Counted from the first letter of the stretch, positions 23,457 through 42,154 are shown. The stretch is DNA of 64,000 nucleotides from Candidatus Kerfeldbacteria bacterium (GCA_016182555.1 JACPGJ010000007.1:192053-256052), one strand, 5' to 3'. Program-made: numbers and translations. The notes: generated by a model not told the origin, from the sequence alone.

Positions 23457-23471
23457 AGCGTTGTGGTTATA

Positions 23472-23548: not shown

Positions 23549-23576
23549 AAATACAGTATGGTTAAGTGATGAACGG

Positions 23577-23810: not shown

Positions 23811-23855
23811 ATACAGCACTTTGACAAATACTTCTGTGTAGAATAATCTACTGTA

Positions 23856-24332: not shown

Positions 24333-24336
24333 TTAT

Positions 24337-24412
24337 GGTGGCCATGGTGAAACGGTTATCACGACAGTTTGTGGTACTGTCATTACGGGTTCAATTCCCG
24401 TTGGCCACCCCA
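24337..24412 (+). tRNA. tRNA-His (anticodon GTG) with encoded G-1 and CCA
   Basis: G-1 is opposite discriminator C73. Perfect acceptor GTGGCCA/TGGCCAC, D arm GTGA/TCAC, anticodon stem ACAGT/ACTGT with loop TTGTGGT, T arm ACGGG-TTCAATT-CCCGT. Confidence 0.9.
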
Positions 24413-25957: not shown

Positions 25958-26147
25958 ATTGTAAATTGATAAAATGACGAAACACATTTAGTCATTTTAA
26001 TACTATATAATACTTAATTTATAGTCAAATTTAGATATTTATTTGTTATTTTCGTCATTTTTGACGAAAAATTTATACATTATTTTTTCTATTATATACT
26101 TGTACGTTCCTCGGAATGAATTTGAGGAACAAGGAGGTAAATCAAAA

Positions 26148-26402
26148 ATGAAAAAGCACCTTTTATTCCTTCTGTTGTTGGTGCTCACTGCCTGTCCTAC
26201 CAAAACTTCTGATTTCAATAGGAGCAAGGAGGTAAAACCACCCACAACAGCAGGAGAATCAAGTCAATGGGTGAGGGAGCTATCCTATTCGTCTGCTCCG
26301 CTCATTGGCGATGCCTCTCGTTTAAAAACAGATACCAATAAATGCTACCTCGTAGTGAGAGGTGGACATGGAATCGCACTTGTAGAGACGCCTTGTCCTT
26401 AA
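26148..26402 (+). CDS. small lipoprotein (cargo gene of module 1)
   Basis: GGAGG RBS 8 nt upstream. MKKHLLFLLLLVLTAC lipobox signal peptide. Confidence 0.55.
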   Translation: MKKHLLFLLLLVLTACPTKTSDFNRSKEVKPPTTAGESSQWVRELSYSSAPLIGDASRLKTDTNKCYLVVRGGHGIALVETPCP

Positions 26403-26411
26403 TTAAAGGAA

Positions 26412-26480
26412 AACGGTTCGGCAGTACCAGCTGCGTCGAGAGCTTGGAGGAGCTTTCCGCACAAAACTGCTATTTTTTAT
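26412..26480 (+). repeat. conserved ~70-nt palindromic terminator-like element, copy 1
   Basis: AACGGTTCGGCAGTACCAGCTGCGTCGAGAGCTTGGAGGAGCTTTCCGCACAAAACTGCTATTTTTTATTT. A long imperfect hairpin (GGCAGT...ACTGCY) followed by a T-run, directly 3' of the + gene. Confidence 0.8.
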
Positions 26481-27280
26481 TTCAAATCTTTTTGAGTAAT
26501 TTCTTCTGAAACACTATCCCACATCATTTCAAACCACGCAAGGAATGTTCTATAAATAGTTGGGTTGTCAATCACCACAGTATTCAGATGTTGCGTGTAA
26601 TCAATAATAGCTACATGCCCTTCCCAAATGAGGGTATCAGTGTCCAGCTTCATATTTTCTGGCAACCATTTCACATGATGATATTCATGCAAACCCGCAT
26701 TTCGAAGATACTGCTTCCCCGCAGCATTGGGAATCATCATTCCTTTACGTAATACTTTCTGTATTTTTAACTCAGCAAAATTATCTTCAACAGCGGCATG
26801 CGGAAATGTTTTCGTCACTACTGCTAAATCACCAATTAAGTAAAGTGTTTTTTGTGCGTTGATAATTTCCCGATGCACTGCCAGAATTCCTTTTTTGCCT
26901 TCGAAAAAACGCACACCTGCTTTGTAGGCTGTACCAAATTTCATTTGATTAAACACATCCGCAACAGAACGAAATGCATTTTGTTGTTCCGTGAGTGCTC
27001 GTTTCTCTTCTTCCAAAATATCAATGACATGTTCAATCTGCTCTACTTGAAAATAGAGTTTATCATTTTCTGTAATTGAACTCACAAATCCTCGATGTTG
27101 TAATGATTGCAACAAATCATAAATTGATGAACGTGGAATATCACTTGCCTGTTTTGTTATTTCAGATGCTGTAGCTTTATTGAGCTGAATCAATACAAAC
27201 AGCACGGCAATCTCCCGTTGATCAAGCCCATACGCTTCAAGAATACGTTGTATTTCTTTTTGTCGAATATCCGTCGACAT
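26477..27280 (-). CDS. TrmB-like transcriptional regulator, island paralog 2
   Basis: HTH LDQREIAVLFVLIQLNKATASEITKQASDIPRSSIYDLLQSLQHRGFV. C-terminal block conserved with the paralogs. Confidence 0.7.
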   Translation of the reverse strand: MSTDIRQKEIQRILEAYGLDQREIAVLFVLIQLNKATASEITKQASDIPRSSIYDLLQSLQHRGFVSSITENDKLYFQVEQIEHVIDILEEEKRALTEQQNAFRSVADVFNQMKFGTAYKAGVRFFEGKKGILAVHREIINAQKTLYLIGDLAVVTKTFPHAAVEDNFAELKIQKVLRKGMMIPNAAGKQYLRNAGLHEYHHVKWLPENMKLDTDTLIWEGHVAIIDYTQHLNTVVIDNPTIYRTFLAWFEMMWDSVSEEITQKDLK

Positions 27281-27377
27281 ATATATTGATTATTATTTAA
27301 ATTCATTTTATATTTATTTGTTCTTTTTGTCAAAATAGTGCGACAAAAAGAATAGACTTTAACTCATGAGGTTTGTT

Positions 27378-28001
27378 ATGCGGATTTTGGTAATCGACGA
27401 TAACCAACATCATCTCAACTCAGCTAAAGAATTGTTAAAAGAGCACAAAGTCACTCTCTGTTCTACTGCAGACGAAGCAATTGAACTGCTTGAACCGCAG
27501 TATGATGATGTCATCTTTCATCGGCTTTGGTCAGAGAAAGGATGGGAAGAAGCTTCACAAGTGGCTCGCCTTCCCTACTGGGATGTAGTGCTCAGTGATC
27601 TCCTCATGCCTGCCCCAAAACGAAACCTGAGTTACTTTGGTGAAAAATTCATTGGGCAGGAGATGCCAGTAGGTTGGGCATTCGTGTTACGAGCTACACT
27701 CGAGGGTGCAAAATTTGCAGCCGTTGTGACAGCAACAAACCATCACAACCATCCAGCCTCAGCACTGCTCGATCCTCTTGGATCGGCATATTGGGAAGAT
27801 AATAGGGAAAATGCACCGAAGTTTACAATTAACGGTGCCACAGTTGGTTTCTATCATGCACCAATGATAGGTGTAGACACCGTTCCCTGTTCACACTGTA
27901 ATGTAACAGGGCGCACAGATAAAATCTGTTCTTTTTGTGAGGGCACAAAAAAGGAACAAGGAAAAAATTGGGCTCTGGTGCTTAAGGCGCTAACCTCTTG
28001 A
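27378..28001 (+). CDS. receiver-like domain protein with C-terminal DnaJ-type CxxCxGxG zinc finger (cargo, family member 1)
   Basis: MRILVIDDN...DVVLSDLLMP receiver-like N-terminus. Conserved HHNHPAS motif. C-terminal CSHCNVTG...CSFCEGTK. GAGG RBS before the second ATG. Confidence 0.6.
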   Translation: MRILVIDDNQHHLNSAKELLKEHKVTLCSTADEAIELLEPQYDDVIFHRLWSEKGWEEASQVARLPYWDVVLSDLLMPAPKRNLSYFGEKFIGQEMPVGWAFVLRATLEGAKFAAVVTATNHHNHPASALLDPLGSAYWEDNRENAPKFTINGATVGFYHAPMIGVDTVPCSHCNVTGRTDKICSFCEGTKKEQGKNWALVLKALTS

Positions 28002-28011
28002 AAAATATACA

Positions 28012-28080
28012 AACGGTTTGGCAGTACCTGCTGCGTTGAGAGCTTGGGAGAAGCTTTCCGCACAAAACTGTCTTTTTTAT
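28012..28080 (+). repeat. conserved ~70-nt palindromic terminator-like element, copy 2
   Basis: AAACGGTTTGGCAGTACCTGCTGCGTTGAGAGCTTGGGAGAAGCTTTCCGCACAAAACTGTCTTTTTTATTT. Confidence 0.8.
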
Positions 28081-28835
28081 TTCTCCCACATGTTCTTGAA
28101 CAACTCCCGCAAATTTCGTGCAAGAACAGCATCATGAATTTCCACCATATAATGCGGACGATCACGTGTTTTTACCATAATAATATAATCACCAATTACC
28201 CACAGACTCGCATCAAATTCACCTTTTCGTGTTGGTTTAACTAAGCGTTGCACATACTTCTCTCGCATAGCTCGCTCAATGTTTTTGTCGTTCGTTAAAA
28301 AACGGACTTTCAAATCTTTTGGCCCTTGCTGCCAAGTCCAGTCTATCCATCGGCCATAGTGCTCGGTAAATGAACTATCATGAAACCCCCACCATGTATT
28401 ATCTATTGCTTCTCCGCTCTCTTTCCAATGTTCATATTGTTTATGCAAATAGGTCGTCAGATCAGATTCTTCAATAACCTTGATTTTTGGTACTGAATAT
28501 TCTACCGCAGACATGATTGTTGTAATATTGCGGGAGAGAATTTGAGCTGCCTCTTTTTTCTTTTTGATTTGCTGCTCTTCTTTTGTTACCAAATCCAGTA
28601 ATGCTTTTGGATTACCCGCTACCAGATAGCGCACTTTGTTCCCAATATCTTCAGTAATCAAACCAAGTTGAATAAGCTTTTTCCCAATACTATACACCGT
28701 TGTTCTATTGATTCCCGTGAGCTTGGCCACCCGTGCTGGCGATATTTTTCCTGTCTGTTGCACAGCCAAAAAAACAGCTTGTTCTTGCTCATTAAAACCT
28801 AATGTACTAAAGAGTTCTTTTTCCATATATGGCAT
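28077..28835 (-). CDS. TrmB-like transcriptional regulator, island paralog 3
   Basis: HTH LGFNEQEQAVFLAVQQTGKISPARVAKLTGINRTTVYSIGKKLIQLGLI. C-terminal block conserved. Confidence 0.7.
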   Translation of the reverse strand: MPYMEKELFSTLGFNEQEQAVFLAVQQTGKISPARVAKLTGINRTTVYSIGKKLIQLGLITEDIGNKVRYLVAGNPKALLDLVTKEEQQIKKKKEAAQILSRNITTIMSAVEYSVPKIKVIEESDLTTYLHKQYEHWKESGEAIDNTWWGFHDSSFTEHYGRWIDWTWQQGPKDLKVRFLTNDKNIERAMREKYVQRLVKPTRKGEFDASLWVIGDYIIMVKTRDRPHYMVEIHDAVLARNLRELFKNMWEK

Positions 28836-29002
28836 ATTGCTACAAAATTAACATGTTGTTGGTATATCGTCAACGAATTTTATATTATTAGCTAAAATTA
28901 GCATAGAATAATGATTTATTATCTTTGACACTATAGCTTCTTTATTTTACGCTGTATAGTTCTGTTCTGGATAGCAAGCTTGAAAACTGTATGGGAGGAG
29001 AT

Positions 29003-29392
29003 ATGAAAATTGGTATTCTGACGTGCAATCACAATTGGTGGAGCAGTGATACCGCTAGCCTATTAAGCGGAATGCTGCCCTATTTAGCACCTCGAGAATT
29101 AGGAGGAGTTGAGAGCTATATTGAACTTCCTTGGAATGAAGTAATTCCAAAAGACGTCGATCTTGTCTTTTGTACTCTGTGCGAAACCTGCACAGAAGAG
29201 CCAGAGAATCTCAAAGCTCTAAAGCAACGAGGAGGGTATATAGCTATTTTTCATGAGTACAACGATTTACGTGCTCAGGTGATAGTAGAGCTGCATGACT
29301 ATCACACCTTCCGCATGCTGAAAGAAAAGTATGGTGTTACTAATCTCGAATTCCTTTATAGCGAATGGAGATTTTTAACAGCCAGAAAATAA
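29003..29392 (+). CDS. hypothetical protein (cargo of module 3)
   Basis: GGGAGGAG RBS before MKIGILTCNHNWW. No recognizable domain. Confidence 0.4.
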   Translation: MKIGILTCNHNWWSSDTASLLSGMLPYLAPRELGGVESYIELPWNEVIPKDVDLVFCTLCETCTEEPENLKALKQRGGYIAIFHEYNDLRAQVIVELHDYHTFRMLKEKYGVTNLEFLYSEWRFLTARK

Positions 29393-29423
29393 GGAGGAAT
29401 AATGTTCTATATCCGAGCAGGAC

Positions 29424-29470
29424 CAACGGTTTGGCAGCACCGATCAAAAGCTGCCTTTTTGTTTATTTTT
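29424..29470 (+). repeat. short variant of the conserved element (same 5' box CAACGGTTTGGCAG, simple hairpin plus T-run)
   Basis: CAACGGTTTGGCAGCACCGATCAAAAGCTGCCTTTTTGTTTATTTTTT. Confidence 0.65.
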
Positions 29471-30224
29471 TAAGTGTTTTCCAAAGAAGCGTATATATCA
29501 ACTTCTGCAATTGGACAAACTCCCGTGATTCTATCAGGACAGCCATTTTTTCTTTCCATGAAGCAATGAGCACTTTATCATTATAGATATTCACTTCTGG
29601 CGAGAATGTATGCTCTGGATCATCTAAAATAACCGATTCACGAAGTTCTGATTTATCATGCTTTGCGCGTTCAACTGATTTTTTATTTTTTGGCATAATA
29701 GCCCGAATTGATACCTTTGCTGCTGTACGACGCTTGTAATAGTCTGGGAAAAAATGTGGTAGTCCCTCGTGCATAGTTTCCACATTGGCATAGGCTAAAA
29801 TCGTTTCTTTAGCAGTAAGTGTATCTTCATATGCTTCTCGCATTCCTTTTTCTCCTTCATAAAATGTTACTTTTGGTTTTGTACTTTGCGGATGAATCAA
29901 CGAGGAAAGTTCTGGCAGAATTTGTTTTACCAGCTCCTGTTGCGTATTGATTTGCTTATTCATTTCCTCCCTTTCTCGTTCCAGATACTGAACTAAACGT
30001 TTAGGATCACCCGCATGAAAATAGATTTTCCCTTTCTTTTTGAATTTACTAATGAGTCCTTTCTTCATCAGACCTTCTAACACATCATAACAACTCGTAC
30101 GGTTAATATTCGACTTTTTACTAATATCGGTAGGAGTCGCTGAATCCAGCTCTAATAACGCTAAATAGACTGCTGTTTCTTTATCAGAGAACCCTAATTG
30201 CTCAAAAATGGTTGTGGATATCAT
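29463..30224 (-). CDS. TrmB-like transcriptional regulator, island paralog 4
   Basis: HTH LGFSDKETAVYLALLELDSATPTDISKKSNINRTSCYDVLEGLMKKGLI. C-terminal KPKVTFYEG...NIYNDKVLIASW...LIESREFVQL. Confidence 0.7.
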   Translation of the reverse strand: MISTTIFEQLGFSDKETAVYLALLELDSATPTDISKKSNINRTSCYDVLEGLMKKGLISKFKKKGKIYFHAGDPKRLVQYLEREREEMNKQINTQQELVKQILPELSSLIHPQSTKPKVTFYEGEKGMREAYEDTLTAKETILAYANVETMHEGLPHFFPDYYKRRTAAKVSIRAIMPKNKKSVERAKHDKSELRESVILDDPEHTFSPEVNIYNDKVLIASWKEKMAVLIESREFVQLQKLIYTLLWKTLKK

Positions 30225-30360
30225 ATATTTTGTGGAAAATATTTCGACAATATTAGTATATCAAATAAAGGATAAAATAGCAATATTTTTATACTTTGTC
30301 GGTTATAGTGTGTAAGTATTTTTTATTCTATGAGATACTACTGTGTTCTCGAAAGAGAGC

Positions 30361-30906
30361 ATGCACATTGAAACCATATCCATTCAGTTAAGGCACGGCT
30401 TCGCGATGTTGCGGAGTGGTCGTGAGCTACACTGGCTGAATGGGTATTACAAAAAACGTTGGGGTAGTATGCGGCCAACAGTAGCGCTTGAGTTTAATGG
30501 TACCAACAAGTGGGTGGGGACATTTAGTTGGCATCATAGTTTAGATAAGGTTGAAGCGAGTTTTAAAGTGGTTGTGACAGACTGGGGCAGTGAGTCTACC
30601 TGTTATAGTTTTGAGATAGGGTCTCAAAAGTGGGACTTATCACCTAAAGAACTGTGGCAGTATGGCAATGTTGGTAAGGATGATTATCAACAAGCACAGC
30701 AGAGGATGCTATACTTGATGTATAGTCAAACCAGGACTGCACTTCAGGCAGCAACATCTATGCCTGATTTTGACCTACAAGACCAGATCAAAAGAGGAGA
30801 TGCTAACCTGGAGGTGTTTAACAACAAAGTTTCCCTGAGGATGTTTGATAACGTTTGGGAAAGTGCGGTGCATTATACTATTCGTAAGCTGTATATCCCC
30901 TCCTAG
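30361..30906 (+). CDS. hypothetical protein (cargo of module 4), possibly frameshifted into 30845-31120
   Basis: No domain recognized. A second overlapping ORF (30845-31120) ends exactly at the downstream terminator hairpin. Confidence 0.3.
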   Translation: MHIETISIQLRHGFAMLRSGRELHWLNGYYKKRWGSMRPTVALEFNGTNKWVGTFSWHHSLDKVEASFKVVVTDWGSESTCYSFEIGSQKWDLSPKELWQYGNVGKDDYQQAQQRMLYLMYSQTRTALQAATSMPDFDLQDQIKRGDANLEVFNNKVSLRMFDNVWESAVHYTIRKLYIPS

Positions 30907-31130
30907 AAATTCGTGCCGCCTGTCACGTTCCCTCCTACAGGCATATCCCAGTGCCTACCTTTTAAAAGATGGATACTGGAATATCTATAGTGCTAAAGCT
31001 GGTTCTACTATCAACTGCTTTATCAAATTCATATTCACCTTCCAGTCAGTTTGGAGGTTCCTGAATACGTCCACTAAGGGACCCATGATGGGAAGAAGCG
31101 AGGCGAAAGCCTCGTTTTGATTTGTATTTA

Positions 31131-31167
31131 GAGAAGCTTTGCAAACAAAACTGCTTTTTTGTTATTT
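31131..31167 (+). repeat. partial copy (3' half) of the conserved element, preceded by an independent hairpin at 31100-31119
   Basis: GAGAAGCTTTGCAAACAAAACTGCTTTTTTGTTATTT matches the 3' half AGCTTTCCGCACAAAACTGC-Tn. Confidence 0.55.
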
Positions 31168-31906
31168 ACACATTCCATGCTACATAAAACAAACTTTTTA
31201 ACATTTCATGTATTCCTTTGCTTTCAATAATCACTCCAAAAAAATCTTCTTGGTATGAGAGAAAAGCTACTTTATGTGCAAATATTTTCACATCTCCGCT
31301 ATATAATGCGTGTTGATTTTTGATAATTTTGATTTCTCTGAGTTCATTTTTTGCAGAACTTGCCCACTCACCTGCTGTCTGATCATCATGTGTAATAATT
31401 TTGTTGACCACTTTTTTCCGTATACGTTCTTTAACATATTTGTCGAGGATTTCTTTTGGAATGTATTCATAAAAATTTTGCACTCCGATATACGTCAGAA
31501 TAGTATCGCCTGGAGAAACGGATGCAATAATATCATGATAAAACTTTTTCATCCCTATTGCTCCTTCATATAACAGAATGTTTGGTTTTGAACGTAAAAA
31601 ATTTTGATATTTTGCTAACTCTGGAATCATCTGGCGTACCGCTTCTATTTTTTCTTCTATCGCTTGCTCAAGATTACGAACATCATCAACAAAGTAATAT
31701 TTTCTCCCCTTCTGCTTTGTCACCGAAATAAATCCATTTCGCTGCATCTCAGGCAGAATATTATATAACGTTGTTCTTTTCAGATTACAGCGCTTTGCTA
31801 AATCAGTTGCCGTTATTTCTCCTGCCTCTAACAACGTGAGGTAAATGAGCGCTTCTTTATCAGAGAAACCCATATTCTCTATTAAGTGTTGCTTCTGTAC
31901 TCGCAT
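31166..31906 (-). CDS. TrmB-like transcriptional regulator, island paralog 5
   Basis: HTH MGFSDKEALIYLTLLEAGEITATDLAKRCNLKRTTLYNILPEMQRNGFI. C-terminal KPNILLYEG...VKIFAHKVAFLSY...IIESKGIHEM. Confidence 0.7.
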   Translation of the reverse strand: MRVQKQHLIENMGFSDKEALIYLTLLEAGEITATDLAKRCNLKRTTLYNILPEMQRNGFISVTKQKGRKYYFVDDVRNLEQAIEEKIEAVRQMIPELAKYQNFLRSKPNILLYEGAIGMKKFYHDIIASVSPGDTILTYIGVQNFYEYIPKEILDKYVKERIRKKVVNKIITHDDQTAGEWASSAKNELREIKIIKNQHALYSGDVKIFAHKVAFLSYQEDFFGVIIESKGIHEMLKSLFYVAWNV

Positions 31907-32099
31907 ATATTTATACTGTGTCTACATTTTTAGACAATATTCTAGTTACTATTTTTTACAAAAAATGCCTTAATTTACAGCCATAATAGTTATTCTTTCC
32001 ACTAGCATAATATAGAATAACAAAAAAATCAAACGCTATTTTTATTTTCATATAACGTGTAAATCGGCAATCACGCCTAGCCCATATCTGGAGGACATC

Positions 32100-32324
32100 A
32101 TGGACGGTCTGCTTTGGCTTATTGCTAATTTATTCCAAGCTCATCAGAAGGTTTCGGAAAGAACCGCGCGCATTGCTTCACTAGAAACTGCTTTATTGAC
32201 TGCTTCATCTGACGAAGAGAAAGAAGCAATCACAAAGCGAATTAATGAAATTCGTGCCGAGACCATGCACCTGGATGCTGGTCGCAAAGCAGTGCTCAGA
32301 GCAAATGGAAACCCTGAGAAGTGA
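32100..32324 (+). CDS. small coiled-coil protein (cargo of module 5)
   Basis: 74-aa helical ORF correctly placed between the divergent promoter and a copy of the element. Confidence 0.35.
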   Translation: MDGLLWLIANLFQAHQKVSERTARIASLETALLTASSDEEKEAITKRINEIRAETMHLDAGRKAVLRANGNPEK

Positions 32325-32366
32325 TTACCTGCTGAGGTACTTGCGTTCAATGTACCTAGACAGTAT

Positions 32367-32438
32367 CAATGGTTTGGCAGTACCAGTTGCGTTGAGAGCT
32401 TGGAGGAGCTTTCCGCACAAAACTGCCTTTTTTTATTT
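32367..32438 (+). repeat. conserved ~70-nt palindromic terminator-like element, copy 5
   Basis: CAATGGTTTGGCAGTACCAGTTGCGTTGAGAGCTTGGAGGAGCTTTCCGCACAAAACTGCCTTTTTTTATTT. Confidence 0.8.
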
Positions 32439-33225
32439 ACTGCCACCCACCTTCAACAGGTTTGGCAAAATGATGAATAGACTCAAACAGCGCACGTAGA
32501 ATGCCAACAATACCCGCATGCTCCAACGTAAAAAGTAGTTTAACTTCTGGAATAAAAAACGCAGCTTTGTTTCCATATATCATCACAAGGTGCTCAAGTG
32601 GCAATGCGGCTTCTGGCAATGTGCGTAAATCCCACAAGCGTGCTCGCATCAAGCGTTTATTTTCTTCGGCAAGGCCTTTTCCTGGCAGAGCCATAGATTC
32701 TGTGGTGAACACTGCACGCGTTAAAATGCGCCTGTCCACCATGCGTCCGAAAAATACCGCCCACTCTTTACTGGAGAGCAATTTCAATTCTCCCTTCACA
32801 GCTGTTTTTCCTTCCAGCACAAGAAATTCAGACCCCCGTGGCATTGTACTCATTTCGTCGTAAATACGTTTCATGCCAGCCGCTGATTCAATAACCTCAA
32901 TAAGCGGCTTTTGTGTTTCAGCGCGTTGCAACGATTCCAATTCGGGCACAACGGATTTAAAATCAACCGTCCAGCGTTCAAACAAATCGGCTAAATCTTT
33001 TGGCGGTAGAGCAACATATTCCGTTCTGCGCCCAACTCGTGTTTCCTTCACCAGCCCGCGTTCAATCAAATGGGTGAGATGGAAAGAAACTGCGGCTCTA
33101 TTTTTCTTTTGTGCATACGCTAATTCTGTAATTTTGCTTGAACCCTGCTTTAACAACAGTACATACAACTCTGCCTGTTGTGGCGTAAGAGAGAAGTTTT
33201 CGAGCAGTTCGATGGGTTTTGCCAT
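32437..33225 (-). CDS. TrmB-like transcriptional regulator, island paralog 6
   Basis: HTH FSLTPQQAELYVLLLKQGSSKITELAYAQKKNRAAVSFHLTHLIERGLV. More divergent C-terminal domain. Confidence 0.6.
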   Translation of the reverse strand: MAKPIELLENFSLTPQQAELYVLLLKQGSSKITELAYAQKKNRAAVSFHLTHLIERGLVKETRVGRRTEYVALPPKDLADLFERWTVDFKSVVPELESLQRAETQKPLIEVIESAAGMKRIYDEMSTMPRGSEFLVLEGKTAVKGELKLLSSKEWAVFFGRMVDRRILTRAVFTTESMALPGKGLAEENKRLMRARLWDLRTLPEAALPLEHLVMIYGNKAAFFIPEVKLLFTLEHAGIVGILRALFESIHHFAKPVEGGWQ

Positions 33226-33413
33226 ATATTTTTCTATAAATGTCTACGATTATTTACATCCAATTATACGCTATTTTATTAGTATAGTCAAACATTTTGT
33301 ATGTTTAACGTCTATAACCGTTGACGTTGAGCGGTTTTTCAGGTATTCTGTTCTGTTGATTGAGAATAGTTCTCATGAAACACGCACCTTTACAACCGAT
33401 AAAGGAAAAGATC

Positions 33414-34031
33414 ATGAAAGTTTTAGTAATCGACGACAACGAAATCAACCGAAAATCTGCGCGGGATACTCTTGAGGGGCACGACCTCACGATCGCTGAT
33501 TCAATGAGTGCTGGTGGACTTGCAATGTTCCACGCGAAAAAAAATTTGCCATTCGAAGCGGTTCTGACGGATATGAATATGCCGAGGGAGGAGGAGGGAG
33601 AGCTTGCCGCGTATGGATTCATCATTGCTCTGATGGCAGTGCAATACGGGGCAAAGTACATTGCCATGGTTACAAGGAAAGGCGGCCACGATGATAAGAA
33701 AGATGCAATGGCGGAAGCTCTTTCCTCTCTTGGTCCGTGGCACTACACAAACAAACAGCGTTTAAATATTAACGGAGCAAGGGTTATGTTTGTGTACGCA
33801 CCTACAACCAGTGAAGCGACTGGAGAGGGGTCGTGTCCTTCCTGCAGTGGCTCTGGAACCTGCAAGTATTGCGATGGCACGGGAATTTTTGTGGATGAGG
33901 ACAGGAGGCAGGACAACTGCCATGTGTGTCACAATAGTCAAGGCGGTTGCCACCGTTGCAAAGGAGAAGGCAAGGTGAAAATATATGGGAAGGACTGGGG
34001 TAGGGTTCTGTCCGACCTTATTGCTCCATAA
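33414..34031 (+). CDS. receiver-like domain protein with a fourfold DnaJ-type CxxCxGxG zinc finger (cargo, family member 2)
   Basis: AAAGGAAAAG RBS. MKVLVIDDNEINR...AVLTDMNMP receiver-like region. C-terminal CPSCSGSGTCKYCDGTG...CHVCHNSQGGCHRCKGEG. Confidence 0.6.
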   Translation: MKVLVIDDNEINRKSARDTLEGHDLTIADSMSAGGLAMFHAKKNLPFEAVLTDMNMPREEEGELAAYGFIIALMAVQYGAKYIAMVTRKGGHDDKKDAMAEALSSLGPWHYTNKQRLNINGARVMFVYAPTTSEATGEGSCPSCSGSGTCKYCDGTGIFVDEDRRQDNCHVCHNSQGGCHRCKGEGKVKIYGKDWGRVLSDLIAP

Positions 34032-34045
34032 GTAAAAAGGAGAAC

Positions 34046-34120
34046 CAACGGTTTGGCAGTATCCGTGCGTCGAGAGTTGTAGCACACAACTTTCCGCATA
34101 AAAACTGCCTCTTTTATTTT
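34046..34120 (+). repeat. conserved palindromic element, copy 6 (divergent stem sequence, same boxes)
   Basis: CAACGGTTTGGCAGTATCCGTGCGTCGAGAGTTGTAGCACACAACTTTCCGCATAAAAACTGCCTCTTTTATTTT. Confidence 0.7.
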
Positions 34121-34878
34121 CTCGCACTATTCCAAGCTAATTTCCAAATCATTTTCATGGTATTAGCAATGAGTTGGCTTTCAATGGTGACTGCAAACAC
34201 TTCATGGGTGTGATATGAAATCATAGACACAACATTGTCATAGCACATAATTTCACATTCAAAATTGTAGGTTGATGCTGGGAGTAATCGCGATTCACGA
34301 AATTCTTGTTTATCTCTACTATGAAAATCTACTGCTAATTCATCATCAGGAATCACAAGCTTGGCTAGTTTATTATTTTTTTTACGAGCAGGAATATACT
34401 CTTTCTGCCAAAAATGAATCAATGCTTTATCACGTACTTGTAATGATTCTATTCCTACAAATGCTTTCAGTTCATTTTCTTTCGCATTCAGTGAAGCACG
34501 ATATACCTCTTTTACTCCTTCAATTCCTTCATAATATTTCAACACTGGTTTTATCGCATCATGATTCATTCGTGTGACTAACTCTGGGAGCAGTGTATCA
34601 AACTGCTTCAATTTTTCTTTGAAGAGCTGCTTGAGCGTTGAAGGATGTTCCGCAACATACACTGTCTGCTTTCCTTTTTTTGATTGCGTGACAAATCGTT
34701 TTTCAATGAGATTATCGATCGTGTGATAGAGAGTTGTACGATTGATTTTTGTTTTACTGGAAAGCTGTAAAATAGACGATGAGCCAAGTTCAAGCAAGGC
34801 AAGATACAGTGCCGCTTCTTTATCTGTTAATCCATATTGTTGCAATGCTTCTTGAATCATGTTGACTATTTTCGACAA
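34114..34878 (-). CDS. TrmB-like transcriptional regulator, island paralog 7
   Basis: HTH YGLTDKEAALYLALLELGSSSILQLSSKTKINRTTLYHTIDNLIEKRFV. C-terminal block conserved. Confidence 0.7.
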   Translation of the reverse strand: MSKIVNMIQEALQQYGLTDKEAALYLALLELGSSSILQLSSKTKINRTTLYHTIDNLIEKRFVTQSKKGKQTVYVAEHPSTLKQLFKEKLKQFDTLLPELVTRMNHDAIKPVLKYYEGIEGVKEVYRASLNAKENELKAFVGIESLQVRDKALIHFWQKEYIPARKKNNKLAKLVIPDDELAVDFHSRDKQEFRESRLLPASTYNFECEIMCYDNVVSMISYHTHEVFAVTIESQLIANTMKMIWKLAWNSARK

Positions 34879-35032
34879 ATATTAAAACTAAATTTAAGCT
34901 AATATAAATAACTTTATCCATAAATAAGAGTAAAATATATTATATCTTGTTTATAAAAATAGTCAAATATTTGTATGAATGGTAGTGTTGTTTGTTCCTC
35001 AATAACGAGGGGCACAACAGGAAGGATCTTTT

Positions 35033-35488
35033 ATGCTTAGGCTTGTCGAAATGTTCAAAATTGAAGTTGATTCCACTATCAATTTTGAACGGGCACATTT
35101 TTTTCACAATCAAAAAGCGTTTCTTCAGTGCCTACCAGACGTGGAGAAAAGATTTCCACTCAACGACGACCGGGGAAAGGTGGAAATATTCATCTATGAG
35201 GTAACGGCTGAAGAGATGACGAATGATCAACTCAACGAGGAATTGTTTCGAAACCACTGGCGGATGGCTGGAAGCAGAATCGGCCTTTCGCTTATGTCTG
35301 ATCAACAGATCAGATGGCGAATGCGAGAAAAATACCCCACGGTATTTTTTACTGAAACATGGCATGACGGAAATGTGCCAAGACGGCTCGCTTTTTGTGA
35401 AGGGATGCATAAGTTTGGCACCATGCTGGGAATAATCCCAATGGCGCCAATCAGCAAAGGAGACAAATTTCTTGTTGTAAAGGTGTAG
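35033..35488 (+). CDS. hypothetical protein (cargo of module 7)
   Basis: 151-aa ORF followed immediately by a copy of the element. No recognizable domain. Confidence 0.4.
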   Translation: MLRLVEMFKIEVDSTINFERAHFFHNQKAFLQCLPDVEKRFPLNDDRGKVEIFIYEVTAEEMTNDQLNEELFRNHWRMAGSRIGLSLMSDQQIRWRMREKYPTVFFTETWHDGNVPRRLAFCEGMHKFGTMLGIIPMAPISKGDKFLVVKV

Positions 35489-35494
35489 GATCAT

Positions 35495-35562
35495 CAATTT
35501 AGCAGTACCTGTTACGTTGAAAGCTTGGAGGAGCTTTCTGCAACGGTACTGCTTTTTTTATT
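35495..35562 (+). repeat. conserved palindromic element, copy 7 (compensatory changes keep the long stem)
   Basis: CAATTTAGCAGTACCTGTTACGTTGAAAGCTTGGAGGAGCTTTCTGCAACGGTACTGCTTTTTTTATTA. Confidence 0.75.
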
Positions 35563-35743
35563 ACTTAAAAAATAGTAATAGCTTATAATTGCTCCTAATT
35601 TAGGTTGAACTATACATTAAAAGTTTGGTTCATAAAACACATTCATCGATTCAACTCTTGATTTTCTCGCTTCAAAAAAAACAGGCTCGTCAGATATAAT
35701 ATCCTCGGAGCCTTTATTGGATCGGCTATTTGAGCATATCCGA

Positions 35744-36193
35744 TCATACGTATGCGCGTAACAGAATTCCAACTTCCTTCTCTATCTTTTCCTTGAAAGT
35801 AGTATCAAGGTGAAGGTACTGTTGCCGACAAGCTCGTATCGTACCCTTGATATCACCAAGTACGTACACTGTAATCGTTTCATCTGTGGGAGGAGCACAA
35901 CCAATAAGGGAAGATACTCTGCTCAGATTTTCGATACCAATTTCAATTTGGTTTTGAGCACAGATACCAAATATACTGATGATAAGCTCGATAGCCTTAC
36001 GAAATGACTTGGGCTTATGATGATGGTGAGCCAAAAAGGCTGCATCAACCAAGTTTTCCCACTGCACAATAGTAGGAGGATGTTTGTCATATTTCTTTGC
36101 ATGCTCATCAACCATGTGAATAAGCTCTCGCAAAGTGGTCTCTGGATCGATCCCTTTGAAACTCAGTAGCTCTTGGTCGATATTCAGGCTCAT
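35744..36193 (-). CDS. hypothetical protein (partner of the plus-strand TrmB paralog 8)
   Basis: 149-aa ORF divergent from 36369-37133. No domain recognized. Confidence 0.4.
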   Translation of the reverse strand: MSLNIDQELLSFKGIDPETTLRELIHMVDEHAKKYDKHPPTIVQWENLVDAAFLAHHHHKPKSFRKAIELIISIFGICAQNQIEIGIENLSRVSSLIGCAPPTDETITVYVLGDIKGTIRACRQQYLHLDTTFKEKIEKEVGILLRAYV

Positions 36194-36368
36194 CTTTCTC
36201 TCCTTCTAACTACGTTACACTGTTTGATTACTCAAGGCACATGCTTATCCTTCCATTTTTCTATATGTATTTAAATATACTAAAAATATATTTTGCCTAT
36301 ACTTAGTGTAAAAATTGACATAATTAAATTCTGTTGACAAAAATAATGACAGTAGATAGTGTAATAAT

Positions 36369-37133
36369 ATGTCTATAGAAAAAATGTTAGAACAATTGGG
36401 ATTAGAGCAAAAGCAAGCACTCGTCTACCTTACATGCCTCCAACTTGGTAAAGATAGTGCGTTTCATATTGCTGAAAAATGTGGCCTGAAACGTTCAACC
36501 GTATACATCAAACTAAATGAACTCAATATAAAAGGATTAGTACAGATTACAAAAACATCAAAGGCAAAATTGTATCAGGCTGTTTCTCCAAAACGATTAT
36601 TACAACAAATAGACTTTAGAAAAAAACAGATTGAAGAATCACTCCCCCTGTTGCTTTCTCTGTATAAAGATGAGAGTCAAAAACCGAATATTGAAATATT
36701 TGAAGGGAAAAATGCACTTGAGCAGATGAATAAAGAAATATTCCATTATATCCAGCAGAATCCCACCGAAGAAATCCTTTCGTTTGGAAGAATTGATTAT
36801 CTTGAACGTTATTATGAAAAAACATTTAGCAAATGGGTAAAGCAAGTACAATACAAACAATTTCGAACTCGCCAGATATTTAATAAAGGTGCTACTGAAA
36901 CAGCTCTTGTTAAAACATTACAAAAAAATGCTTCCGCTCAACACGATGTACGATTTGTTGATGAAGAATTATTTTCCAATGACAATGTTATTTGTGGAGA
37001 TACCATGTATATTTTCTCTATTGTAGAAAATAACCTATTTGTAATTGTGATCCATAATCAAGAAATTATACAGACCTATAAAGCTTTCTTTGATTTAGCG
37101 TGGAAAGGTATTAAAAAAACCCCACTCTCCTAA
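36369..37133 (+). CDS. TrmB-like transcriptional regulator, island paralog 8 (inverted orientation)
   Basis: HTH LGLEQKQALVYLTCLQLGKDSAFHIAEKCGLKRSTVYIKLNELNIKGLV. C-terminal KPNIEIFEG...FVIVIHNQEI. Confidence 0.65.
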   Translation: MSIEKMLEQLGLEQKQALVYLTCLQLGKDSAFHIAEKCGLKRSTVYIKLNELNIKGLVQITKTSKAKLYQAVSPKRLLQQIDFRKKQIEESLPLLLSLYKDESQKPNIEIFEGKNALEQMNKEIFHYIQQNPTEEILSFGRIDYLERYYEKTFSKWVKQVQYKQFRTRQIFNKGATETALVKTLQKNASAQHDVRFVDEELFSNDNVICGDTMYIFSIVENNLFVIVIHNQEIIQTYKAFFDLAWKGIKKTPLS

Positions 37134-37180
37134 AAGGAATAGCTATGTATATCGTCTTAACTTGGGTAAAACCAAAATTT

Positions 37181-37954
37181 TTACTTTACTTTATTCGGTA
37201 ATGCATTCCAGACAAGGTTAAATAACGACGTCATTGAATCTGCTAACGCACTATCTTGAATAATAATGCCTGTCGGATGTTGGGTATTCCAGCTAATCAA
37301 GGCAATTTTATTTTTATAGACGTCAATTTCAATTTTGAAGGGATACTTCTGCGCATTAAATAATTTCATCGTGCGATACTCTTCTTTCTTTTTTGCGTAC
37401 TGTTTAGAAATCGCATTATCTGGAGCAATCCAGCGAATAGGAATGTGCTCTTTCATGCGTTTTGCAATAAATTGCTTTTCATGATGAGGAAGAATAGCCA
37501 GCATATCTTCTCCTGAGGAGATAGTAAGAATTTCTTTATCTGGATTTTTATCGAGCTTCATCGTTAGTAAAATATCACGAAATATATTTTCTACTCCCTC
37601 TTTTCCCTCAAAGAATTGCATACGCGTTTGTTGATCACCTGTCATAGCCATATTGAGTAATGGCAGAATTTGACGAAGATCAGTGAGTAAATCTTCAAAT
37701 CGAAATACAATAGACTCTGGTGATTCGGCAGTATACACTTTTCGCTTGCCTTCCAGATGATGAGTAATGAATCCTTTTTTTTCTAACTGCTCTACCAAAA
37801 TATTGACCGTACTGCGCTTTATTTTCGTACTCTCAGTAATTTGAGAAATGAATAAACCGTACTTGCTTTGAAGCAATGCAAAATAGATGCTCACTTCAAC
37901 ATCTTTTAGGCCTAATTGTCGTAATAATGAAGCAACGTCAGGAATGAGTACCAT
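37181..37954 (-). CDS. TrmB-like transcriptional regulator, island paralog 9
   Basis: HTH LGLKDVEVSIYFALLQSKYGLFISQITESTKIKRSTVNILVEQLEKKGFI. C-terminal KIEIDVYKNKIALISW...IIQDSALADSM. Confidence 0.7.
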   Translation of the reverse strand: MVLIPDVASLLRQLGLKDVEVSIYFALLQSKYGLFISQITESTKIKRSTVNILVEQLEKKGFITHHLEGKRKVYTAESPESIVFRFEDLLTDLRQILPLLNMAMTGDQQTRMQFFEGKEGVENIFRDILLTMKLDKNPDKEILTISSGEDMLAILPHHEKQFIAKRMKEHIPIRWIAPDNAISKQYAKKKEEYRTMKLFNAQKYPFKIEIDVYKNKIALISWNTQHPTGIIIQDSALADSMTSLFNLVWNALPNKVK

Positions 37955-38058
37955 AGAAATTTAACAAAAAAATTAACATTTTGATACTATTTTAACAATA
38001 ATCTATTATTTTGTCTAGCACCTTGAAAACAATCTTAGCAAAAGAAAAGGAGGACACT

Positions 38059-38457
38059 ATGAATATCAAGCATGTTCTTGTTCTTGAGGATGATAAGGAC
38101 TTAATCGATCTCTACAAGAAATCTCTATGGGAAATGCTCCTTTCCGATAGTATTGTTCCTACTATGGCCTGTACCGTACATTCAGCCATATCTTGTGCCC
38201 AAGTGAGGGTCGATGTTGAACAACCATTTCATCTTGCCATTCTTGATTATTCCATTCGGAATGATCCGCAGAATGGAAACGATGCCGCCAGAATCATCAA
38301 GGAAATATCACCTACAACACGCATTGTTGGTAATACGGGTGGTAACCCACTGGTTTTCGATCGACGCTTCGTTGATAAGGTGATGCGAAAAAAAATCCGC
38401 AACTGGATGGAAATGATGCTTGCTATCGATGACCATAACCTTGGAGGAATACCATGA
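38059..38457 (+). CDS. receiver-like single-domain protein (cargo of module 9, first gene)
   Basis: GGAGG RBS. MNIKHVLVLEDDKDLIDLYKK...LAILDYSIR. Translationally coupled (ATGA overlap) to the next gene. Confidence 0.5.
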   Translation: MNIKHVLVLEDDKDLIDLYKKSLWEMLLSDSIVPTMACTVHSAISCAQVRVDVEQPFHLAILDYSIRNDPQNGNDAARIIKEISPTTRIVGNTGGNPLVFDRRFVDKVMRKKIRNWMEMMLAIDDHNLGGIP

Positions 38458-38999
38458 AGATTTTGATTATGGATGACAATCCACTTCACCGTGCTGCTGC
38501 ACAAGCTCAATTGAATGATCATGAGCTGACTGTAGTGAGTACATACGACGATGCTCAGGCATTGATTGGGAAAAAGCACGACTTCGATGTTGTGCTTGTC
38601 GACCTGCTCATGCCACCAAGCAAAAAAAATCTCAATTCCCAAGGAAAGAGGTTCACAAGAAAGGAGATGCCAGTTGGGATCTTTCTGGCATTGTTGGCCG
38701 CACGATTCGGTGCCAAGTATGTTGCCGTGGTGACAGATGCTGGACATCATGACCATCCAGCCTCAACCTGTTTCGATGCATTCAACCCTTTTGATCGGCA
38801 CAACGTGCATAATCCAAATGCACCACAACCGTTCAAGCTCAATGATGCAAAGGTCATTCTGTGCAACAACTGCATCGACTACTTCTACGGTGATGATCTC
38901 TCTCGGCAAATGGCATATGGCCAGTACAACACTGAAAAGGGAAAAGTTATTGCGGTAAAAAACTGGCGTTTGGTTCTGGAGGCACTTTTGCAAAGTTGA
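38454..38999 (+). CDS. receiver-like domain protein of the HHDHPAS family with a C-terminal CxxC (family member 3)
   Basis: MKILIMDDNPLHR...DVVLVDLLMPPSKKNL...GHHDHPAS...CNNC. Clear homology to 27378-28001 across the receiver-like region. Confidence 0.6.
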   Translation: MKILIMDDNPLHRAAAQAQLNDHELTVVSTYDDAQALIGKKHDFDVVLVDLLMPPSKKNLNSQGKRFTRKEMPVGIFLALLAARFGAKYVAVVTDAGHHDHPASTCFDAFNPFDRHNVHNPNAPQPFKLNDAKVILCNNCIDYFYGDDLSRQMAYGQYNTEKGKVIAVKNWRLVLEALLQS

Positions 39000-39011: not shown

Positions 39012-39082
39012 CTTGGTTTGGCAGTACCAGTTGCGTTGAGAGCTAGAGGAAGCTTTCCGCACAAAACTGCTTTTTTTATTTT
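39012..39082 (+). repeat. conserved ~70-nt palindromic terminator-like element, copy 8
   Basis: CTTGGTTTGGCAGTACCAGTTGCGTTGAGAGCTAGAGGAAGCTTTCCGCACAAAACTGCTTTTTTTATTTT. Confidence 0.8.
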
Positions 39083-39195
39083 GTGTAAACCCTATCAATT
39101 ATCTTATAACAACTATTATCTAAATTAAGGGCTAAAATAAGCTAATATTAGTAACTTTTACTCCTTTCTTATAATTTCTTATAACTTTAATACTC

Positions 39196-40623
39196 CTAAA
39201 AATTTGCTTCGTATGAAGCACCTCGTGTTTCTCCTAGCTGATGAATTAAGCCCATCTTTTGCATCTTGGCTAAATCATAATTAATGGTTGGACGTGGAGT
39301 ATCGGTGAGAATCTGTTCACATTCCTTTGCAGTGATTCTTTTATTTTCAATCAAATAATTCCAAATAGCTACTTGTCGCTCATTTAAACTACTCAGTTTC
39401 TCACCCATCAATATCACCTTAAAACTATTTACGGTATTTTTAAATATTGGAGGGATAAGATTCCACTGTTTCATTGTATTAAACACAATATCAATTCCTC
39501 TACCATATTCTTCCAGATAATCCAATTCTTTCAGCCGTGCAGCAATCATCTCATTTCTACTTGCTTGGGCATCTTTGATATTCTCTACGGTCACTCCAGG
39601 TGGCAAAGAGCCTGGATTAAACACTTCGATACGATCTTCAAATATATTTACCTGGGTATAGGTTTCAGTAATTCTGTAATCACGATGAATAATAGCATTT
39701 GCAACGATTTCACGAATAGCTTTTTCAGGATATTCATATTTTTCTACTCTCTTTGTGCCAATAATTTCAGCACTCCGTTTAATATTCCGTAATACAAACT
39801 TCTGTATTGCATCAATTTGTGTATCAAGCGTGCCATCAATATCCATTTTATCAATGATATCTGTTGCTACATTCGATCCTTTGTAGCGAACACATCGCAC
39901 AATATACCGACTAAAGTTTTGTTTGTTTTGTGGACGGTCTTTAGCAAAAATAAGAAATCCTCCAACAGTAGGCAATTGCTCACCATCAAATGTATCTACA
40001 ATTCCCAAATTCTTCATGAGTTCAAAATTCACATCTTCAATAACAATGTCACGATGAGTACGTTCACTGCTGCGTTGCACTAATCCAAGTATTTTTTCTT
40101 TCGACAAACCATCTAGTGTTGTGTCTTCTGCTTTTGTAGTATCGAATTTTAATTTTTTTGAGTTATCGATCAAGTGTCGCATCTCCTCTTCTGTCATTGT
40201 TCGATCCGTATTTCCATCTCGAATACAGGCACCTGAAGGCAATCCTTTTGGCTTGTAATAGCATGGCTTAAATTGATCAGGGCATTCGGGAATATAGACT
40301 GCTAATAATGTTTTTCCATCTCGTTCAATAATGTGATATGCAGGGCGAATAGTAAAACTCATTTCATTATTCACAAGGTCACCAATCTTTTCTTGTAGCT
40401 GGGCAATATCTGTTATTCCAACAACTTCCATTATCTTATCCTCTTTATTATCAACCACACCAAAAACCATCAACCCACCACCTGGCTTATGCGAAAAAGA
40501 AGAAACAGTTCTCCACGTCGTTGATGGACGACCTCCTCGTGCATCTTTAAATTCAACACTGATCGTTTCTGAAGAACGATTGAACGCTTCATCTATTAAT
40601 TTTTCTATCTCTGATATAGTCAT
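39196..40623 (-). CDS. putative ATP-dependent DNA-binding regulator (AlbA_2/Schlafen-like N-terminal domain, HATPase_c_4-like domain, C-terminal wHTH; RecG-C-terminal-like family)
   Basis: The architecture matches this family. N-terminal part: SEIEKLIDEAFNRSSETISVEFKDARG. Middle: REIVANAIIHRDY. C-terminal HTH: ERQVAIWNYLIENKRITAKECEQIL. Start set at MTISEIEKL. Confidence 0.6.
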   Translation of the reverse strand: MTISEIEKLIDEAFNRSSETISVEFKDARGGRPSTTWRTVSSFSHKPGGGLMVFGVVDNKEDKIMEVVGITDIAQLQEKIGDLVNNEMSFTIRPAYHIIERDGKTLLAVYIPECPDQFKPCYYKPKGLPSGACIRDGNTDRTMTEEEMRHLIDNSKKLKFDTTKAEDTTLDGLSKEKILGLVQRSSERTHRDIVIEDVNFELMKNLGIVDTFDGEQLPTVGGFLIFAKDRPQNKQNFSRYIVRCVRYKGSNVATDIIDKMDIDGTLDTQIDAIQKFVLRNIKRSAEIIGTKRVEKYEYPEKAIREIVANAIIHRDYRITETYTQVNIFEDRIEVFNPGSLPPGVTVENIKDAQASRNEMIAARLKELDYLEEYGRGIDIVFNTMKQWNLIPPIFKNTVNSFKVILMGEKLSSLNERQVAIWNYLIENKRITAKECEQILTDTPRPTINYDLAKMQKMGLIHQLGETRGASYEANF

Positions 40624-40778
40624 AAAATCTTTTCTATTTGGCTGCAGTATACAAAAATAACCCCTTCTCCACAAGGGTAAGAAATAGTGAGCTGGAGGGT
40701 GGACTACTATATATCAAGTGATAGGCCGTATAAGTTATTCGCTTGCTGTAATCCAGTTCTAACTTCGTCTACTATGCG

Positions 40779-41037
40779 ACCCCAAGCGGAATGATTATGT
40801 GCTAAGAAGATGGAATCGAAAGGTTTTTGCAAAGAAAACTGCACCTTTTGACCATCGAAGGACAGGTTCTGAAGTACCAGTTGGATAATTTCCCTTTTTT
40901 GGTCTAGTTCAGAACCGATAAACAATTCTTTACTACGGGAAGCGATGTTTAGTATTGCTATAGCGTCGATATAGTAACTTTCATCGGCTTTTTGTAGTTG
41001 CTCTAGCTTACTACGGTATTCGGTCTGCTTGGCACGA
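40779..41037. repeat. direct repeat copy 2 (259 bp)
   Basis: Aligns with 24407-24684. Begins ACCCCAAGCGGAATGATTATGTGC, as copy 1 does at the tRNA-His 3' end. Contains a 72-aa ORF fragment (40707-40925, minus) that is paralogous to the fragment in copy 1. Confidence 0.85.
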
Positions 41038-42145: not shown

Positions 42146-42154
42146 ATATTCAAC

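Follow-up and report, generated by a model that had tools for sequence, protein, structure and literature searches.

Predicted stand-alone receivers with a His-His pair and an optional zinc-knuckle arm, often encoded near TrmBL2-like regulators in Patescibacteria

The closest described counterparts of the proteins reported here are the receivers CheY, Spo0F and DivK (PF00072). We analysed a stretch of 64,000 nucleotides (nt) from Candidatus Kerfeldbacteria bacterium (GCA_016182555.1, JACPGJ010000007.1:192053-256052), referred to below as the window, which carries three paralogous genes named FAM-A, FAM-B and FAM-C and a fourth open reading frame (ORF), D. As in CheY, Spo0F and DivK, the FAM proteins keep the receiver fold, the acidic pair, the acceptor aspartate in an hhhhDxxMP context and the Thr/Ser of beta4; having no output domain, they presumably signal by protein-protein contact. 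Unlike those proteins, they carry a 'lid' of about 20 residues and a beta-arm that precedes alpha5 and its Lys-x-Trp (K-x-W) and may bear zinc knuckles; their beta4-alpha4 loop contains an invariant His-His pair, alpha4 is very short, and the beta5 lysine is replaced by Asn, His or Tyr. They differ also in that the Pfam model sees their first half only and that no kinase gene lies nearby.

Three further systems resemble parts of these proteins or their surroundings. FixT of Caulobacter is an Fe-S-binding single-domain receiver with a four-Cys metal site (C53, C56, C59, C64) that is important for its function; it is not phosphorylated, is restricted to its genus and is encoded with FixLJ (PMC7078487). 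The FAM proteins are likewise stand-alone receivers, but they keep all acceptor residues, and their Cys residues form DnaJ-type knuckles between beta5 and alpha5, whereas those of FixT lie close together in mid-sequence. With the Cys-rich domain of DnaJ (PF00684), Anti-TRAP (PF15777) and BSD2_CRD (PF25436) they share CxxCxGxG repeats in twos or fours, and DnaJ, Anti-TRAP and BSD2 use such zinc knuckles for protein contacts. As in DnaJ, a beta-hairpin inserted into another domain bears the Cys module at its tip. Unlike DnaJ, the FAM proteins have neither a J-domain nor the DnaJ C-terminal domain, the module is optional in the family, and the repeats are arranged back to back with 1-residue spacers in FAM-B and as two loose motifs in FAM-A. 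The regulators encoded beside the FAM genes, in turn, resemble TrmBL2 of the Thermococcales (PDB 5bpd/5box), being about 260 amino acids (aa) long with a TrmB winged helix, a coiled coil and a truncated C-terminal domain that lacks the sugar-sensor subdomain. TrmBL2 itself is an abundant chromatin-like global repressor in archaea, and its biology as a TrmB protein without the sensor subdomain is described in PMC4158304 and PMC3419521. In the window, by contrast, there are nine bacterial paralogs, each divergent from a small cargo gene of its own.

We favour the reading that the FAM proteins are single-domain response regulators with an elaborated alpha4-beta5-alpha5 output face, to which we give a probability of roughly 0.45. 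By predicted fold, FAM-A, FAM-B and FAM-C are stand-alone receiver (REC), CheY-like proteins, and they belong to a large Patescibacteria-specific family. The four ORFs are as follows.

27378..28001, + strand: FAM-A, 207 aa; DD at residues 7-8, acceptor Asp74, Thr118; NHHNHPAS at residues 121-128 (nt 27738-27761); putative zinc site formed by CSHC 171-174 and CSFC 184-187 (nt 27888-27938); Lys-x-Trp at K196-N-W198
33414..34031, + strand: FAM-B, 205 aa, the divergent member; DD, Asp53, Thr87; one His only (GGHDD); four CxxC in residues 141-182 (nt 33834-33959), giving two putative zinc sites; Lys-x-Trp at K193-D-W195
38454..38999, + strand: FAM-C, 181 aa, the zinc-free member; DD, Asp50, Thr94 and K169-N-W171; GHHDHPAS within nt 38733-38765
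38059..38457, + strand: D, a small alpha/beta protein of 132 aa with the patterns VLVLEDD, AILDYS and IVGNTGG

All four had been listed in the original prediction, which was made from the sequence alone, and all are present. The LVIDDN motif and the aspartate of DVVLxDLLMP that it assigned to three of them were also found, as [LI][VI][IM]DDN and (V/A)VLxD(L/M)xMP, and a C-terminal GK[DN]WxxVLxxL helix is common to FAM-A, FAM-B and FAM-C as well. FAM-B and FAM-C are 33% and 42% identical to FAM-A, respectively, and the three score 159-252 bits with the family hidden Markov model (HMM) versus 24-39 bits for ordinary hybrid-kinase receivers; by these sequence comparisons they are true paralogs. 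The motif HHxHPAS, by contrast, had been called strictly conserved, and this did not hold: FAM-A reads NHHNHPAS and FAM-C GHHDHPAS, but FAM-B reads GGHDDKKD and keeps the second His alone.

Structures were predicted with AlphaFold2 on the family alignment, with a mean predicted local distance difference test score (pLDDT) of 92.3 and a predicted template modelling score (pTM) of 0.88 for FAM-A, and a pLDDT of 85.7 and pTM of 0.82 for FAM-B. Secondary structure assigned to these models by DSSP follows the order beta1-alpha1-beta2-alpha2-beta3-alpha3-beta4-alpha4-beta5-(arm)-alpha5. When they were compared with the PDB using Foldseek, nearly all of the best matches, and all of the high-probability ones, were response-regulator receivers (E 1e-3 to 1e-4, probability 1.0, target-normalised TM-score 0.45-0.63; best E for FAM-B, 1.5e-4), and the best matches in BFVD were receivers too. 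Alignment to E. coli CheY with hhalign (E = 4.7e-6) placed the DD on D12/D13 and LSDLLMP on ISDWNMP, so that D74 falls on D57. On these models the FAM fold is a receiver, and the CheY-like N-terminal region of the original prediction is borne out. Its statement that the receiver consensus is not followed after the His-His motif applies to the sequence, where the consensus is indeed lost, but not to the fold, which goes on through beta5 and alpha5 in both models. We take beta5 to be the hydrophobic strand A[KR]VxFxx, which is preceded by a variable loop and, before that, by an alpha4 of very short length.

Conservation was counted in 188 members, with FAM-A numbering.

[DE]D after beta1: 186/188
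acceptor Asp, D74: 187/188
Thr/Ser, last residue of predicted beta4: 188/188
H122: 184/188
H123: 188/188
H125: 154/188
K196: 185/188
W198: 187/188

The (beta-alpha)5 core appears complete in the models, with the acidic pair at beta1, the acceptor Asp in hhhhDxxMP at beta3 and the beta4 Thr/Ser. Pseudo-receivers normally lose the acidic pair, the acceptor Asp and related residues, and the near-total retention of this acceptor chemistry argues, at the level of sequence, against a pseudo-receiver. Around the active site and the output face the models suggest four additions, namely the lid, the His-His pair, the beta-arm and the Lys-x-Trp. The lid is a hairpin that follows the acceptor Asp. The His-His pair belongs to the beta4-alpha4 loop, 4-5 residues past the beta4 Thr; in receivers this loop borders the active site and shifts when the protein is phosphorylated. 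H12, H23, N121, S128 and D132 are further conserved polar residues. HH(N/D)HPAS had been proposed as the defining motif; across the family it gives way to T-x-x-[NDS]-H-H, in which only the His-His is near-invariant, and one subfamily reads NHHxGAMSA.

The arm consists of two antiparallel strands that leave and re-enter the fold at the end of beta5 (residues 163-170 and 192-196 in FAM-A, 131-140 and 187-193 in FAM-B), and it ends in the invariant Lys-x-Trp at which alpha5 starts. The K196-type lysine is located at the end of the return strand and, since this strand pairs with the one leaving beta5, it comes to lie next to the canonical lysine site. In the models it may therefore reach the pocket and stand in for the canonical beta5 lysine. 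In zinc-free members a short loop joins beta5 straight to GKDW, and because of this we regard the Cys module in the models as an optional insertion at the arm tip, between beta5 and the K-[DN]-W of alpha5, and not as a C-terminal fusion. The original prediction had described a receiver fused to a zinc finger, which does not fit an insertion inside the fold before alpha5, nor the 81 of 188 members (43%) that have no CxxC at all. The remaining members carry one (12), two (56), three (20) or four (19) CxxC motifs, and 121 of the 260 CxxC motifs (47%) are strict CxxCxGxG. About half of the members, then, are predicted to present one or two DnaJ-like CxxCxGxG zinc knuckles at the arm tip.

In the window, two proteins had been credited with two to four CxxCxGxG repeats. 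This is right for FAM-B, which has four CxxC, three of them strict, and not for FAM-A, whose two motifs (CSHCNVTG and CSFCEGTK) are both loose; FAM-C has a single CNNC and no zinc site. With the isolated Cys region as query, PF00684 matched FAM-B at E = 0.0029 and 18.3 bits, against a cut-off of 32.7, and gave no match to FAM-A. Among 43 family members searched against Pfam, DnaJ_CXXCXGXG was matched by 4 (E < 0.01), Anti-TRAP by 3 and BSD2_CRD by 1, and in the PDB the family profile matched the zinc finger of DnaJA3 with E = 0.19. The likeness to DnaJ is therefore real at the level of the motif, and the zinc-knuckle class appears to be the right one, these being the best-matching families; membership of the DnaJ family as such stays below the profile threshold. 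Zinc binding by the knuckles, like the role of the lysine, is an inference.

A profile search was run over 1.84 billion cluster representatives (clusters at 50% identity). It returned 1,297 matches at E <= 1e-3, 1,009 at E <= 1e-10 and 341 at E <= 1e-30, while a word-indexed search returned 41 relatives. Since ordinary hybrid-kinase receivers reach just the 24-39 bits given above, the matches at E <= 1e-10 are probably true members. The best 150 library matches are all 158-332 aa long and have no recognisable output domain, and no extra Pfam domain was found in the longest members. Almost all of the family belongs to the Patescibacteria, or candidate phyla radiation (CPR). The named sources comprise Moran-, Kerfeld-, Wolfe-, Uhr-, Falkow-, Berkel- and Buchananbacteria, Saccharibacteria and Paceibacterota, along with a few metagenome-assembled genomes labelled otherwise.

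The family has no curated model in Pfam, NCBIfam or PADLOC. NCBIfam and PADLOC gave nothing specific, and Response_reg was matched at E <= 0.01 by 20 of the 43 members searched; its gathering cut-off of 30.2 bits was passed by FAM-C alone (30.8 bits; FAM-B 27.3, FAM-A 18.3). Of the two Pfam assignments that the original prediction had in view, one was thus reached in a single protein, and PF00684 in none. We also considered a known defence or phage protein and rejected it: the PADLOC matches were marginal (15-20 bits), 50,697 phage records yielded no tblastn match and IMG/VR no relative. As for novelty, the family is real and lacks a model, but it is not new in the sense that its sequences are already in the databases, some of them labelled 'response regulator' or 'CheY-like'; the NCBI protein P0001, for instance, is 100% identical to FAM-A and is called a 'response regulator transcription factor'. 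That the architecture is undescribed agrees with our literature searches, in which no paper on a receiver with a DnaJ zinc finger was found. Searches for TrmB together with Patescibacteria, CPR or Saccharibacteria likewise returned no relevant paper.

How such a protein might work can be sketched as follows. The acceptor Asp would be phosphorylated by a distant kinase or by a small phosphodonor such as acetyl phosphate, with the His pair possibly tuning metal or phosphoryl chemistry. Phosphorylation would shift the beta4-alpha4 loop and reposition the arm, which might then bind a partner protein. Expression of the locus would be set by the divergent TrmBL2-like regulator, presumably a repressor, acting through a palindrome that overlaps the shared promoter region.

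Several observations weigh against this favoured reading. The Response_reg match covers only model positions 1 to about 55 of 111. The canonical lysine position at the end of beta5 is occupied by Asn in 85 members and His in 71, by other residues such as Tyr in the rest, and by Lys once. The extra invariant His residues and many conserved polar residues are unusual for a purely signalling receiver and would suit an enzyme or a metal sensor, and FAM-B has been retained despite the loss of the lid and of most of the His motif. Finally, a crude regular expression for the histidine kinase H-box found no such ORF in the 64-kilobase (kb) window or in the CPR loci, and no partner of the arm was identified.

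The regulators divergent from the FAM genes are listed below with the two palindromes that lie between them; the PF01978 cut-off is 25.6 bits.

26477..27280, - strand: TrmBL2-like regulator divergent from FAM-A (TrmB_26477), PF01978 at 53 bits
27321..27352: palindrome, candidate operator in the TrmB/FAM-A divergent promoter region, TTCTTTTTGTC-N10-GACAAAAAGAA, perfect, with 11-nt arms
32437..33225, - strand: TrmBL2-like regulator divergent from FAM-B (TrmB_32437), PF01978 at 35 bits
33307..33328: palindrome, candidate operator in the TrmB/FAM-B intergenic region, AACGTC-N10-GACGTT
37181..37954, - strand: TrmBL2-like regulator divergent from the D/FAM-C operon, one of the nine-paralog array

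Nine TrmB-family genes lie at 25217-37954 and are 14-23% identical to the first of them. A profile of these paralogs aligned over its full length with TrmBL2 chains (positions 4-247 on 6-263, E = 1.8e-9). Each is transcribed divergently from small cargo of its own; three of these partners are FAM-A, FAM-B and the D/FAM-C operon, and the other six are unrelated. Among the cargo are a putative lipoprotein of 119 aa and ORFs of 133, 187, 74, 151 and 149 aa with no Pfam family.

Outside the window, a divergent upstream TrmB gene was found at 11 of 27 independent genome loci (odds ratio 9.2, p = 7.6e-6), and a TrmB gene within 6 kb at 19 of 27. In a set of metagenome loci that partly overlaps the genome set the divergent arrangement occurred at 9 of 27 (p = 1.8e-4), and the pair is likewise present in Pfam-annotated Moranbacteria loci. 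Two pairs of the window have counterparts elsewhere. The TrmB of FAM-A has its best relative in locus L008 (46% identity) and that of FAM-B in locus L007 (43%), in both cases far above the next match and again paired with a FAM gene; the FAM gene of L007 is also the best relative of FAM-B. Four more orthologs of FAM-A's TrmB (43-54% identity; L044-L047), however, face unrelated, non-FAM proteins in divergent orientation. The TrmB-FAM link is therefore enriched without being exclusive in either direction, and the question whether homologs always neighbour TrmB-like genes is answered by a tendency, neither universal nor exclusive. An all-against-all BLAST of the three genes on either side revealed no other neighbour conserved across lineages. 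In Moranbacteria and Parcubacteria (L001-L003, L011, L039-L040) the pair was seen in a conserved block beside a tyrosine recombinase and a LysM-CHAP hydrolase, and in L001-L003 type IV secretion-like genes (TrbL, PrgI, TraC-like, TraG-like, T4SS pilin) were called nearby.

The left arm of the palindrome at 27321-27352 overlaps the best -35 hexamer of the TrmB gene (TTGACA-17-TAAAAT), and its half-sites TGTCAA...CGACA recur in the orthologous intergenic region of L008. Perfect palindromes of the (T)GTC/CGTC-N4-10-GAC(A)/GACG type occur in the TrmB/cargo divergent promoters at 26049-26070, 27321-27352, 31919-31936 and 33307-33328. From their sequences, these are candidate paralog-specific operators. 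Most plausibly, TrmB controls transcription of the TrmB/FAM pair. Since its orthologs also pair with unrelated cargo, we find transcriptional control by a local regulator whose cargo slot is exchangeable likelier than an obligate pair of proteins.

The first alternative is a split response regulator in which FAM is the receiving half and the sensor-less TrmBL2-like protein the DNA-binding half; the phosphorylated or metal-bound FAM would bind TrmB via its zinc-knuckle arm and alter operator occupancy. The enriched adjacency in two sets of loci, the orthologous pairs (TrmB at 46% and 43%, with FAM-B's best match partnering the same TrmB) and the full-length match of the window regulators to a sensor-less protein are what such an arrangement would lead one to expect. 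Against it stand the four orthologs of FAM-A's TrmB facing unrelated cargo and the six other island paralogs paired with unrelated small genes; moreover, some 60% of the FAM genes lack a TrmB next to them, and no TrmB-FAM fusion was present among the matches. We consider a split regulator unlikely.

It would not be unreasonable to ask whether the FAM protein is an enzyme, a REC-fold metalloenzyme whose acidic pocket and His pair coordinate one or two ions of a transition metal for the hydrolysis of a phosphoester or nucleotide substrate. The set DD ... D ... [DN]HH, placed where parallel strands end, would then be convergent with the DHH phosphoesterases, a likeness that we assume from the motifs of that family, and DHH itself is read at the His-pair position in 27 of the 188 members. 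The invariant H123 and near-invariant H122, together with H12, H23, N121, S128 and D132, are more than a receiver usually keeps, and the crude H-box search showed no kinase nearby. Predicted enzymatic receiver folds also exist, a 'Cyclic-phosphate processing Receiver domain' protein being among the BFVD matches. Yet the significant fold and profile matches are all to signalling receivers, receivers typically have both the hhhhDxxMP acceptor context and the beta4 Thr, no meaningful match came from searching the His-motif segment against the PDB, and FAM-B lacks two of the three His, so that an enzyme appears doubtful to us.

Alternatively, the FAM protein might be a receiver that is not phosphorylated and senses metal or redox state directly via the Cys knuckles, the His pair or both, by analogy with FixT. 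FixT is a precedent, being a Cys-metal receiver that is never phosphorylated (PMC7078487), and the FAM His and Cys ligands would lie near the output face. However, 43% of the members have no Cys motifs, which for that reason cannot be the core sensor of the family, and the phospho-acceptor residues are kept far better than expected for a pseudo-receiver. Moreover, CxxCxGxG spacing, as in DnaJ, is typical of structural zinc sites and not of Fe-S sites. We regard direct sensing of this kind as improbable.

A composite of these ideas is a kinase-independent REC-fold module, in which the Asp/His-His pocket would bind a transition metal and either catalyse a phosphoester or nucleotide reaction or directly sense a metabolite, for example acetyl phosphate, and the zinc-knuckle arm would feed this state into sensor-less TrmBL2-type regulators, which predominate in these reduced genomes. 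If true, CPR bacteria would have a new signalling logic of their own, although we think the odds are well against it. Spurious or chance ORFs were ruled out by family E-values of 1e-60 to 1e-87.

Patescibacteria account for a large share of bacterial diversity and have tiny genomes, and their gene regulation is almost unknown. A receiver variant that comprises about 1,000 clusters, is present several times within 12 kb of the window, lacks a curated model and is repeatedly adjacent to TrmBL2-like regulators gives a concrete and testable entry point into CPR signalling, and the two together look like a lineage-specific signalling module. If the single-domain response regulator reading holds, the two-component field gains a subclass of receivers whose His-His pair adjoins the phosphorylation site, a catalytic lysine that in the models appears relocated, and a DnaJ-type zinc-knuckle arm on the alpha4-beta5-alpha5 output face. 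With a Pfam or NCBIfam model made from the FAM alignment, many labels of the kind 'hypothetical', or the generic 'response regulator transcription factor', would be replaced.

The stop codon of D overlaps the start of FAM-C (ATGA), with a GGAGG 7 nt upstream; from this sequence D is translationally coupled to FAM-C. The original prediction had called D a plain, coupled receiver-like gene, and of this the coupling stands, but the receiver-likeness exists at the level of patterns only (Response_reg, E = 0.045). With hhalign, D aligned to CheY at E = 0.15 and to the FAM family at E = 0.008 with a probability of 5%. A reading of D as a degenerate FAM paralog is unsupported, the family HMM giving -0.3 bits. 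One homolog was found, P0188 (131 aa, 64% identity), in whose genome the D homolog alone is the TrmB-divergent cargo, followed by AbiEi/AbiEii. NCBI calls D as 97 aa, starting at Met36; the upstream VLVLEDD segment is also conserved in P0188, which favours the longer ORF as the correct one.

Some loci have a gene for a small alpha/beta protein upstream of the FAM gene and translationally coupled to it, as seen for D, for two proteins of 120 and 126 aa in L004, and for the 'MKIAIK' family in about 8 loci. The last is an alpha/beta family of about 100-120 aa, beginning MKIAIKI, that lies directly upstream of FAM, often with an overlap of 1-4 nt; it had no match in Pfam, and D is not detectable as a member. 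Its loci are:

L041, 5642-6001
L021, 5678-6004
L010, 5477-5980
L070, 4379-4711
L091, L066, L082 and L014

A FAM domain with an extra N-terminal alpha/beta region was observed in two metagenome ORFs, in L080 (2191-3516, 441 aa) and in L088 (1424-2317, 297 aa). The N-terminal extensions of the L080 and L088 ORFs had no Pfam match, and these long ORFs may be fusions with upstream partner-like domains.

Nearly all + strand cargo genes of the island have a structured repeat of 66-78 nt after their stop codon. The copies, with covariance model scores for those after the FAM genes, are:

26418-26483: full copy
28018..28084, + strand: full copy, terminator-like, after the FAM-A stop, 87.7 bits
32374-32439: full copy
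34053..34121, + strand: full copy after the FAM-B stop, 72.1 bits, with compensatory changes in the inner stem
35499-35565: full copy
39018..39083, + strand: full copy after the FAM-C stop, 89.6 bits
25189-25224, 29431-29467 and 31128-31166: partial copies

The repeat forms a three-part hairpin followed by a T-run, with an outer stem GGCAGT...ACTGCC and inner stems GCG/CGC and AGAGCTT/AGCTTT; three of its 18 predicted pairs show compensatory changes. Within the window the covariance model recovered six full copies and two partial ones, all inside the island; it also recovered one further copy directly after the D homolog on a related metagenome contig (L036, 3732-3799). Rfam found only the tRNA-His in the island and gave no match to the repeat. 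Because the copies are 68-86% identical, against about 20% for the flanking TrmB paralogs, the repeat is either under selection or spread by recombination, and the island has a cassette-like look. Possible roles are those of a conserved terminator, of a site for RNA processing, and of a cassette boundary or recombination site.

Mobile and defence-type genes flank the TrmB array on both sides (19164-24412 and 39196-43587).

upstream flank: NYN domain; tyrosine recombinase, 19857-20828; AAA_14/DUF4143 ATPase; two tRNA-Arg; tRNA-His, 24338-24412
downstream flank: SLFN/AlbA_2 with HATPase_c_4, 39196-40674; AEP-TOTE primase, 41003-42145; AbiEi-like antitoxin, 42808-43587

The G+C content is 34-39% in most of the region from 24 to 44 kb, versus mostly 42-47% in the upstream flank and at 44-50 kb. 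An exception within the island is the FAM-B cassette (32-34 kb), with 44.7%.

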